The notes beneath the pieces were generated by a model. That model was not told where the DNA came from, did no database searches, and saw only the letters and a list, made by a program, of their open reading frames with translations. Positions 59,320 to 60,065 of a stretch of 64,000 nt of DNA are shown here, in pieces (position 1 is the first letter of the stretch; each line of letters begins with the position of its first letter). The position numbers were made by a program, and so were the translations under genes. The stretch is from a virus (Duplodnaviria; Caudoviricetes), in IMG/VR virus record IMGVR_UViG_3300020049_003954, positions 1,070 to 65,069 of that record. One strand, 5' to 3'.

Positions 59320-60065
59320 CTTAAAGCGAATTTGCCTTCCGCTCCCACAGAAGGACTTTTTTCGATCCACTTTTGACTTCGCACTTAAAGTGGTGCGGGA
59401 ATACACTAAGACTAGTCGGTGTCACATACCGCTAGATTTACATAGCCTCGCACTAGTCATAGTTGCTGCAAAGCCTAGAGTTTCCTCTGGCATCCTTATC
59501 TCTCGCAACAAGTGTGGGAGGTAGTATATTATTTGTTAAAGAACGGCCTAAACGGTTCTTTATCAGTGCGATATACTAGCGTCACTTAGTTCAGCATACA
59601 GGATTCGAACCTGTAACTTCCCAGTGAATGCTGGGACGCATTAACCGAAGGTAGCTAATCTGTTTAAAACAGACTCACCGCAATGCCCTTATACTAATGC
59701 TGAAAACCAGAGGCTATTTAGGACCGCTAAGCCCTTTGGGTTACGAGGGTAATAGCTTACCCTAGTCTCACATTTTGGCTTCCCACTTAAAGGCTGTGAG
59801 ATTATTCACCTTTAAGCTTCTAAATCCCAACAGTGAGTAGAGAGTAGAAAGCTCTCTTTTACAGTATTCTGTAAGCTCTGGAAAGGCTATTTACGGGATT
59901 ATGGCTCCCAACCAGACTTGACTTACCAACCAACTTACTGCTTTTTACGGTTCTTTCTAAACCGAGGATTTGCACCCATGCCGTAGCCGCTTTGAGCTTA
60001 AGGGTCTTATTTTTACTTCTGCTCAAACAGAAGGTAGCTAATTGCTTTTTGCAACAGAGCTACAT
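59320..60065 (-). ncRNA. Large structured non-coding region (candidate large ncRNA or ncRNA cluster)
   Basis: No credible ORF; many hairpins, an H-type pseudoknot, internal repeats, embedded tRNA-like domain. Confidence 0.6.
59590..59703 (-). ncRNA. 114-nt extended tRNA-like element
   Basis: TCAGCAT/ATGCTGA acceptor; ACAGG-TTCGAAT-CCTGT T arm; about 40 extra nt in the middle. Confidence 0.6.

Follow-up and report, generated by a model that had tools for sequence, protein, structure and literature searches.

We find that a non-coding stretch of phage DNA, positions 59320-60065 of the window analysed here, is most likely an array of independent RNA genes on the minus strand and not one RNA. 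The window comprises 64,000 nucleotides (nt) of a 65-kilobase (kb) IMG/VR virus record that is rated about 55 % complete. We consider it moderately probable that the transcript of this array is cut by a variant of the pistol self-cleaving ribozyme, that the cut frees a conserved structured RNA which we call module A, that RNase P probably trims the 3' end of this RNA and that the RNA acts in trans. The sequence supports the modularity of the stretch, its pistol homology and, for module A, both conservation and covariation; cleavage, RNase P trimming, stability and action in trans are what we infer from these. The two elements at the centre of this reading are:

59974-60032, minus strand: variant self-cleaving ribozyme of the pistol type (Rfam RF02679; 29.6 bits, gathering score 34.5)
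59712-59978, minus strand: module A, a conserved structured RNA of about 267 nt and the predicted 3' product of the pistol cut

Relatives of the window (contigs numbered L002 and so on) were reached via homologues of the neighbouring cREC protein, plus a motif scan of metagenomes and genomes. Module A is present in 10 related contigs, and L036 and L038 are essentially the same phage as the window. By blastn and nhmmer, only window positions 60015-59713 are shared with L002, L004, L032, L035, L040, L041, L044 and L064, and the same block is strongly diverged in L006. Further downstream, a transfer RNA (tRNA)-like element recurs only in L002 and L064, and partly in L032 and L044, while the 3' part of the stretch recurs only in L032, where it lies about 900 nt farther from module A. 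Conservation of the last 280 nt at the 3' side is not coupled to that of the 5' block. On the other side, a cassette at 60074-60470 is missing from the otherwise 100 % identical L036 and is found elsewhere in L038. Since the modules are placed independently across relatives, the stretch is best described as a mosaic. The initial annotation had read it as a single ornate RNA of about 750 nt, a claim that this comparison does not support: relatives retain only a block of about 330 nt made up of pistol and module A.

At gathering score over the whole window, Rfam returned no large RNA in the stretch and one canonical pistol 2.3 kb upstream. A permissive local search (expectation value E ≤ 10) covering 58900-60500 gave three matches, namely a tRNA carrying a large insertion at 59590-59703, the sub-threshold pistol at 59974-60032 and a pistol fragment at 60431-60468. 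The proposed identity with GOLLD or ROOL found no match even at E ≤ 10, while pistol, which had been named beside them as a family to look for with cmscan, was obtained (below the gathering score).

On homology, we assign the ribozyme as a new, unusual member of the known pistol class. Its pairings are:

60032-60028 with 60021-60017, minus strand: P1, 5 base pairs (bp)
60027-60022 (the P1 loop) with 59996-59991, minus strand: pseudoknot, 6 bp
60005-60002 with 59977-59974, minus strand: P2, 4 bp
59987-59980, minus strand: P3, a mini stem of 2 bp with a UACG loop

Orthologous pistols stand at the 5' end of the shared block and score above the Rfam threshold in every relative (43.3-68.2 bits). 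MAFFT, run without structural information, gave an alignment in which 98.9 % of cells pair over P1, the pseudoknot, P2 and P3; 13 pairs are altered on both sides, a result that none of 500 shuffles matched, and all four pairings covary. P1 and the pseudoknot pair in 100 % of cells across nine sequences, with 4 and 3 pairs, respectively, altered on both sides. The core letters (purine 32, G33, G40, C41 and G42) match the consensus in the cmscan alignment and are invariant in all relatives. The cleavage junction keeps its length of 2 nt and is AU in six of the nine copies and GU in three; across the class, junction identity is variable and the 2-nt length is fixed (PMC4604425; PMC6154101). The predicted cut falls between A59979 and U59978, a site placed by homology, from which activity is likewise predicted.

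The low score of the window copy is explained by the exchange of four P1 base pairs, every one of them compensated, together with a P3 reduced to a 2-bp stem capped by UACG. L041, which combines this mini P3 with a standard P1, reaches 49 bits, and A is found at the cut site in six of the nine copies.

Further pistol sequences were seen nearby. The canonical pistol (62296-62359, minus strand, 53.7 bits) directly follows an open reading frame (ORF) stop and is itself followed by a gene-free structured stretch (about 61990-62295) that contains a direct repeat of 18 nt; L002, L032, L040, L044 and L064 likewise have another pistol upstream of their module A copy. The 397-nt cassette at 60074-60470 (minus strand) is made of tiny ORFs and starts with the pistol fragment at 60431-60468, which consists of a standard P1 plus linker (31 bits). 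It looks as if cassettes are shuffled by recombination at pistol P1 sequences. In two more distant cREC-carrying phages (31 % identity), the pistol portion of the profile is likewise matched some 9.5 kb upstream of cREC, at L051 397-469 and L052 189-231.

Judged by its conservation and covariation, module A is an undescribed RNA family, and Rfam gave no family for it at E ≤ 10 either over 58900-60500 or over the L006 copy. Its predicted parts are:

59822-59971, minus strand: 5' domain
59971-59965 with 59828-59822, minus strand: closing helix P_A, which closes the junction of H1 and P_B
59964-59948, minus strand: hairpin H1
59941-59934 with 59837-59830, minus strand: helix P_B, which carries the variable insert and H_AG
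about 59933-59860, minus strand: variable insert
59857-59839, minus strand: hairpin H_AG
59766-59816, minus strand: H-type pseudoknot, with stem S1 (59816-59809 with 59793-59786) and stem S2 (59801-59795 with 59772-59766)
59783-59776, minus strand: invariant 8-nt motif in loop 3 of the pseudoknot
59763-59746 and 59735-59720, minus strand: 3' hairpins H5 and H6, followed by a conserved tail to 59712

The architecture of the 5' domain is captured by a single regular expression that fits nine of nine sequences. Compensatory changes in P_A, P_B and H_AG are found in L006, L041 and L004: an A-U pair of P_A becomes G-C in L006, a G-C pair of P_B becomes A-U independently in L006 and L041, and H_AG has two compensatory exchanges in L006. 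The variable site accepts three unrelated insert types of 16-74 nt. G-U pairs in P_A place module A on the minus strand, and we found no conserved ORF in it among relatives.

The H-type pseudoknot of the initial annotation proved to be real. In the divergent L006, both stems are replaced by wholly different 7-bp complementary sequences, with the 8-nt loop-3 motif and the junction letters unaltered, and S1 also covaries among closer relatives, with 4 pairs altered on both sides across the set. H6 has compensatory changes in four of its five pairs and H5 has one. The sequences were realigned to a covariance model that we built for the 3' domain; on this alignment 98.3 % of cells pair and 11 pairs are altered on both sides, matched by none of 500 shuffles, counts that lean towards the model since the alignment was fitted to it. 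When the partners are slid by 1-3 columns, pairing falls to 39-57 %. Compensatory changes, the evidence that the initial annotation had looked to for a structured RNA, are seen both in pistol and in the main helices of module A.

Phages with 71-77 % identity in the DNA of the flanking cREC gene share about 93-99 % in the 3' domain. This conservation beside diverged genes, together with the compensatory changes, argues for selection on the folded RNA. The unpaired loop and junction letters of module A are invariant even in L006, suggesting that a specific conserved partner recognises it.

Two further pairings were considered and rejected. A helix proposed by RNAalifold, in which an upstream copy of an S2-like 5-mer pairs with the 3' strand of S2, breaks in L006 and uses a segment that is part of the covarying P_B. 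Covariation gives no support to a refolding after the cut in which the new 5' end would pair with a complementary 5-mer situated between H5 and H6. Separately, a long hairpin follows module A in L002 (about 4300-4350) and L004 (about 3085-3125), and at matching sites in L032, L035, L041, L044 and L006; it shows compensatory changes and may be a terminator, and the window is without one.

Several searches farther afield gave no additional copies. With the 901-nt region as query, blastn found no match among GenBank phages. IMG/VR scans with an exact T-arm pattern and with a single cREC protein query returned nothing, a 16-nt motif gave 25 matches, none resembling the region by blastn, and a two-motif gapped pattern gave 27 matches, none of which fit model R2 and eight of which were aligned and found unrelated. 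In 18 IMG/VR loci of more distant cREC-carrying phages (L045-L062) there was no module A within 10 kb, nor was there one in the L045-L049 records searched whole. Three matches from the genome and metagenome scan, two of them in cyanobacterial genes and the third in another gene, were coding and were discarded as false positives.

The remainder of the stretch and the hairpin at its 5' edge contain the following elements:

60034-60063, minus strand: hairpin 5' of the ribozyme, whose 3' strand holds a copy of a 13-nt repeat (60030-60042) and runs into pistol P1
59590-59703, minus strand: non-canonical tRNA-like gene (Rfam tRNA, RF00005, 35.3 bits against 29), starting 8 nt past module A
59520-59578, minus strand: stem-loop that separates the tRNA-like element from module C, built of an inner 7-bp hairpin inside an outer 8-bp stem
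59364-59518, minus strand: module C, a separate small structured RNA

The embedded tRNA-like domain that had been described here is real in that it scores above the Rfam tRNA threshold, and it is misplaced as a part of a larger RNA, being a separate gene. Its acceptor stem measures 7 bp, its T arm is canonical and its anticodon arm of 18 nt (59620-59637) has an 8-nt loop. In the window and L002 copies, the D loop carries a hairpin insertion of about 49 nt that contains the second copy of the 13-nt repeat. ARAGORN reports the element only with the intron option, as a tRNA-Trp with a 36-nt anticodon-loop intron. We take a D-loop insertion to be likelier than that call, since the homologue in L004 (3153-3228) aligns with the other anticodon arm and since the D stem fits L002 better. 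This homologue, a tRNA of 76 nt, shares the acceptor stem and lacks the insertion, and ARAGORN assigns it a 4-nt anticodon within a loop of 8 nt. The family of tRNAs that have this acceptor stem, with an anticodon arm of 18 nt, may be quadruplet-reading or decoy tRNAs. As for transfer-messenger RNA (tmRNA), there was no ARAGORN call and no Rfam match.

Module C is, on comparison of its two copies, a further undescribed RNA family. It is common only to L032 (3258-3481; nhmmer E 8.5e-28), where it lies about 900 nt beyond module A and has a 34-nt insertion. Between the two copies, one hairpin changes from a GNRA-type to a UNCG-type loop with compensation in its stem, and in another stem G-C is exchanged for A-U.

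All motifs listed in the initial annotation (the pseudoknot stems, four hairpins and both repeats) were found at their minus-strand positions. The 13-nt repeat (59647 and 60030) has exactly two copies in the window, with about 0.004 expected within 750 nt by our estimate, and shows no enrichment when up to 2 mismatches are allowed; the 10-nt repeat (59711 and 59884) is at chance level, with about 0.3 expected by a similar estimate. One copy of the 13-nt repeat sits in the hairpin fused to pistol P1 and the other in the D-loop insertion, and it looks as if a small hairpin element stands at two sites in the window lineage only. The hairpin at 60034-60063 is seen only in that lineage (L036 and L038), and the stem-loop at 59520-59578 has no conservation beyond it.

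We propose that the variant pistol would cut the minus-strand transcript between A59979 and U59978, so that the upstream message would end in a 2',3'-cyclic phosphate and module A, of about 267 nt, would begin with a 5'-hydroxyl. The released RNA would fold into a junction domain (P_A, H1, P_B with its swappable insert, and H_AG) and a pseudoknot domain (S1/S2, H5 and H6). In the window phage, RNase P would probably define its 3' end through a cut at the tRNA-like element, which lies 8 nt downstream. The result would be a stable RNA with defined ends that probably binds a conserved protein or RNA partner, and the tRNA-like element and module C would be separate products.

A number of observations weigh against this proposal. 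The window pistol misses the RF02679 gathering threshold, its P3 has only 2 bp and A replaces G at the cut site. The pairing counts for the 3' domain carry the bias towards the model noted above, the deep covariation and all support for S2 depend on the single divergent relative L006, and the remaining eight share about 90-99 % identity across the 3' domain. Relatives have a conserved hairpin, with a U-rich run after it in some copies, between module A and the tRNAs, which makes RNase P trimming specific to the window phage at best. The block of pistol and module A is absent from G001, a fairly close relative that is 89 % complete. Finally, cleavage and a stable species of about 270 nt are predictions from sequence alone.

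Module A could instead be a cis-acting structured leader for the tRNA or tRNA-like genes downstream, with pistol detaching the RNA-gene part from the message and the leader protecting or guiding its processing. Position speaks for this explanation: tRNA or tRNA-like genes lie on the same strand about 0.1-0.9 kb downstream of module A in most relatives examined (none was confirmed for L041 and L035), which also bears out the linkage to tRNA genes that had been suggested at the outset. The hairpin that intervenes between module A and the tRNAs does not fit a leader well, the downstream genes vary between relatives, and the invariant unpaired letters point to a specific partner rather than to bulk. 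We regard the leader as unlikely.

The gene content of the phage raises another reading, and the genes concerned are given here with the boundaries of the stretch:

60060-60107, minus strand: 15-codon ORF at the upstream boundary, overlapping the stop of an ORF of 46 amino acids (aa); its own stop (60062-60060) is the 5' edge of the non-coding stretch
59129-59305, minus strand: 58-aa ORF at the downstream boundary, followed by a 72-aa ORF and then the cREC gene
58553-58966, minus strand: cREC gene (Pfam PF20274), predicted cyclic-phosphate-processing domain
55201-55920: CCA-adding enzyme, downstream of the stretch
31679-32743: T4 Rnl1-type RNA ligase
34039-34554: nucleotide kinase
27601-28986, 18430-19182 and 41174-41683 (listed jointly): DSP-type and calcineurin-like phosphatases (phosphoesterases) and SpoU methylase

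From these predicted functions, the phage appears to hold a full toolkit for RNA end healing and sealing: Rnl1-type ligase, kinase, phosphatases, cREC, CCA-adding enzyme and SpoU methylase. Comparative work associates cREC with this RNA-repair gene set, the activity of cREC itself being only predicted (PMC9503650). The substrates of the toolkit enzymes are ends of the kind that pistol cleavage produces. The RNA-repair genes suggest a link of module A to RNA-end healing or tRNA conflicts. Module A would then represent a new class of phage RNA, released by a ribozyme, with a part in the RNA-end chemistry of the phage or with a role as a decoy or scaffold against tRNA-attacking host nucleases. 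It is conceivable that its pistol-made 5'-hydroxyl could be healed, joined or circularised by the phage kinase, by cREC or the phosphoesterases and by the Rnl1-type ligase. We give this specific role a rather low probability.

The remaining surroundings are as follows. The genes flanking the stretch are on the minus strand, and the non-coding part runs from the stop of the 15-codon ORF (60060) to the start of the 58-aa ORF (59305). The phage codes for a DnaE-type polymerase, an intein-bearing primase-helicase and many tRNAs, and the locus most likely sits in a small-gene region of an uncultured phage of roughly 120-150 kb. L064 (CAZUVD010000006.1, 149,277 nt), with 95-98 % identity in conserved blocks near the stretch, suggests a full genome near 150 kb; it belongs to a metagenome-assembled genome labelled 'uncultured Coxiellaceae bacterium', a label that is either a host clue or a binning artefact. 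Downstream of cREC we observed a conserved non-coding block of about 130 nt (58430-58560, minus strand) with 81-87 % identity in six relatives at varying positions, and a 100-nt tRNA-like element (58330-58429, minus strand, 27.7 bits) common to L032, L041 and L042. At the end of the window (63350-64000), the guanine-cytosine content rises from about 45 % to 65-71 %, which could reflect captured DNA, a junction with the host or a chimeric assembly; the ORF of 188 aa located there has no Pfam match.

Another explanation is that pistol and module A are a cassette, selfish or simply recombining, that passes from phage to phage and is of no use to them. The mosaic distribution and position of the block, the three unrelated inserts at one site and the 397-nt cassette that opens with a spare pistol P1 and is missing from the otherwise identical L036 are all in keeping with such mobility. 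The near-perfect conservation of the 3' domain beside far more diverged genes, along with the compensatory changes, is what a useless cassette would not lead us to expect; selection may act on the element itself, and we consider the explanation improbable.

We think it very improbable that the whole of 59320-60065 is one large ornate RNA of the GOLLD or ROOL type. The stretch is ORF-free and, as the initial annotation held, structured: a 798-nt stretch folds at -248.9 kcal/mol compared to -218.9 ± 8.4 for shuffles (z -3.58), and the minimum-energy fold joins distant parts. The long-range pairs of that fold, however, link segments that relatives do not carry together, the 3' 280 nt and the 5' block are not conserved as one, Rfam gave no match to large RNA families, and a transcript with a ribozyme and a tRNA-like RNase P substrate inside it should be cut into pieces. 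That the region encodes small proteins, such as the 55-aa frame at 59859-60026, is hardly credible: the window has open frames of 50-58 codons, but in relatives the 55-aa and 50-aa frames are broken by stops and frame-shifting indels, as had been anticipated in the description of the region as lacking a credible ORF, stops occur in every frame of the 3' domain, and the changes are base-pair exchanges and not codon third-position changes.

The preferred reading, an array from which pistol would release module A, bears on the pistol class as a whole. The chemistry of pistol ribozymes has been studied well since 2015, and we found no biological role assigned to them in the sources consulted. Here, pistol is fused at a fixed distance to a conserved, covarying RNA, in a phage with enzymes for 2',3'-cyclic phosphate ends and for 5'-hydroxyl ends. 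The locus would give the ribozyme a concrete, testable job, making the mature 5' end of a structured RNA, and it adds an undescribed pseudoknotted RNA family. It also indicates that long gene-free phage stretches can be shuffling arrays of small RNA genes and not single giant RNAs. If the RNA-end or decoy role is true, phage pistols would serve to mature a hidden set of functional RNAs.

Compared to the described pistol class (RF02679; Weinberg 2015; Harris 2015, PMC4604425), the window copy has a P1, the 6-bp pseudoknot, P2, the A-rich linker, the core letters and the 2-nt junction, as well as a putative P3, and its phage setting is typical. It differs in its re-paired P1, in its 2-bp P3 with UACG and in the A for G at the cut site. 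It also differs in being joined via a fixed 2-nt spacer to a conserved 267-nt RNA, and we found no such RNA partner described for the class in the sources consulted.

GOLLD and ROOL, like the elements here, are structured phage non-coding RNAs beside tRNA genes. They are roughly 600-800 nt long, whereas module A is about 270 nt and has no match to their covariance models; the present results have no bearing on multimeric cages. The stable RNAs species 1 and 2 of T4 (rnaC and rnaD) are small RNAs of a tRNA cluster that are co-transcribed and cut from a common precursor, their processing being carried out by host RNases. Module A resembles them by description, a relation in sequence not being expected, and its 5' end would come from a ribozyme in cis. 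Theta ribozymes, which are hepatitis delta virus (HDV)-like, adjoin phage tRNA genes and are implicated in tRNA processing and recoding (PMC10879173). The two systems are alike in using a small self-cleaving ribozyme as a processing device in a phage RNA-gene transcript (PMC10879173), and unlike in that the ribozyme here is of another class and would free the 5' end of a structured RNA that is not a tRNA.
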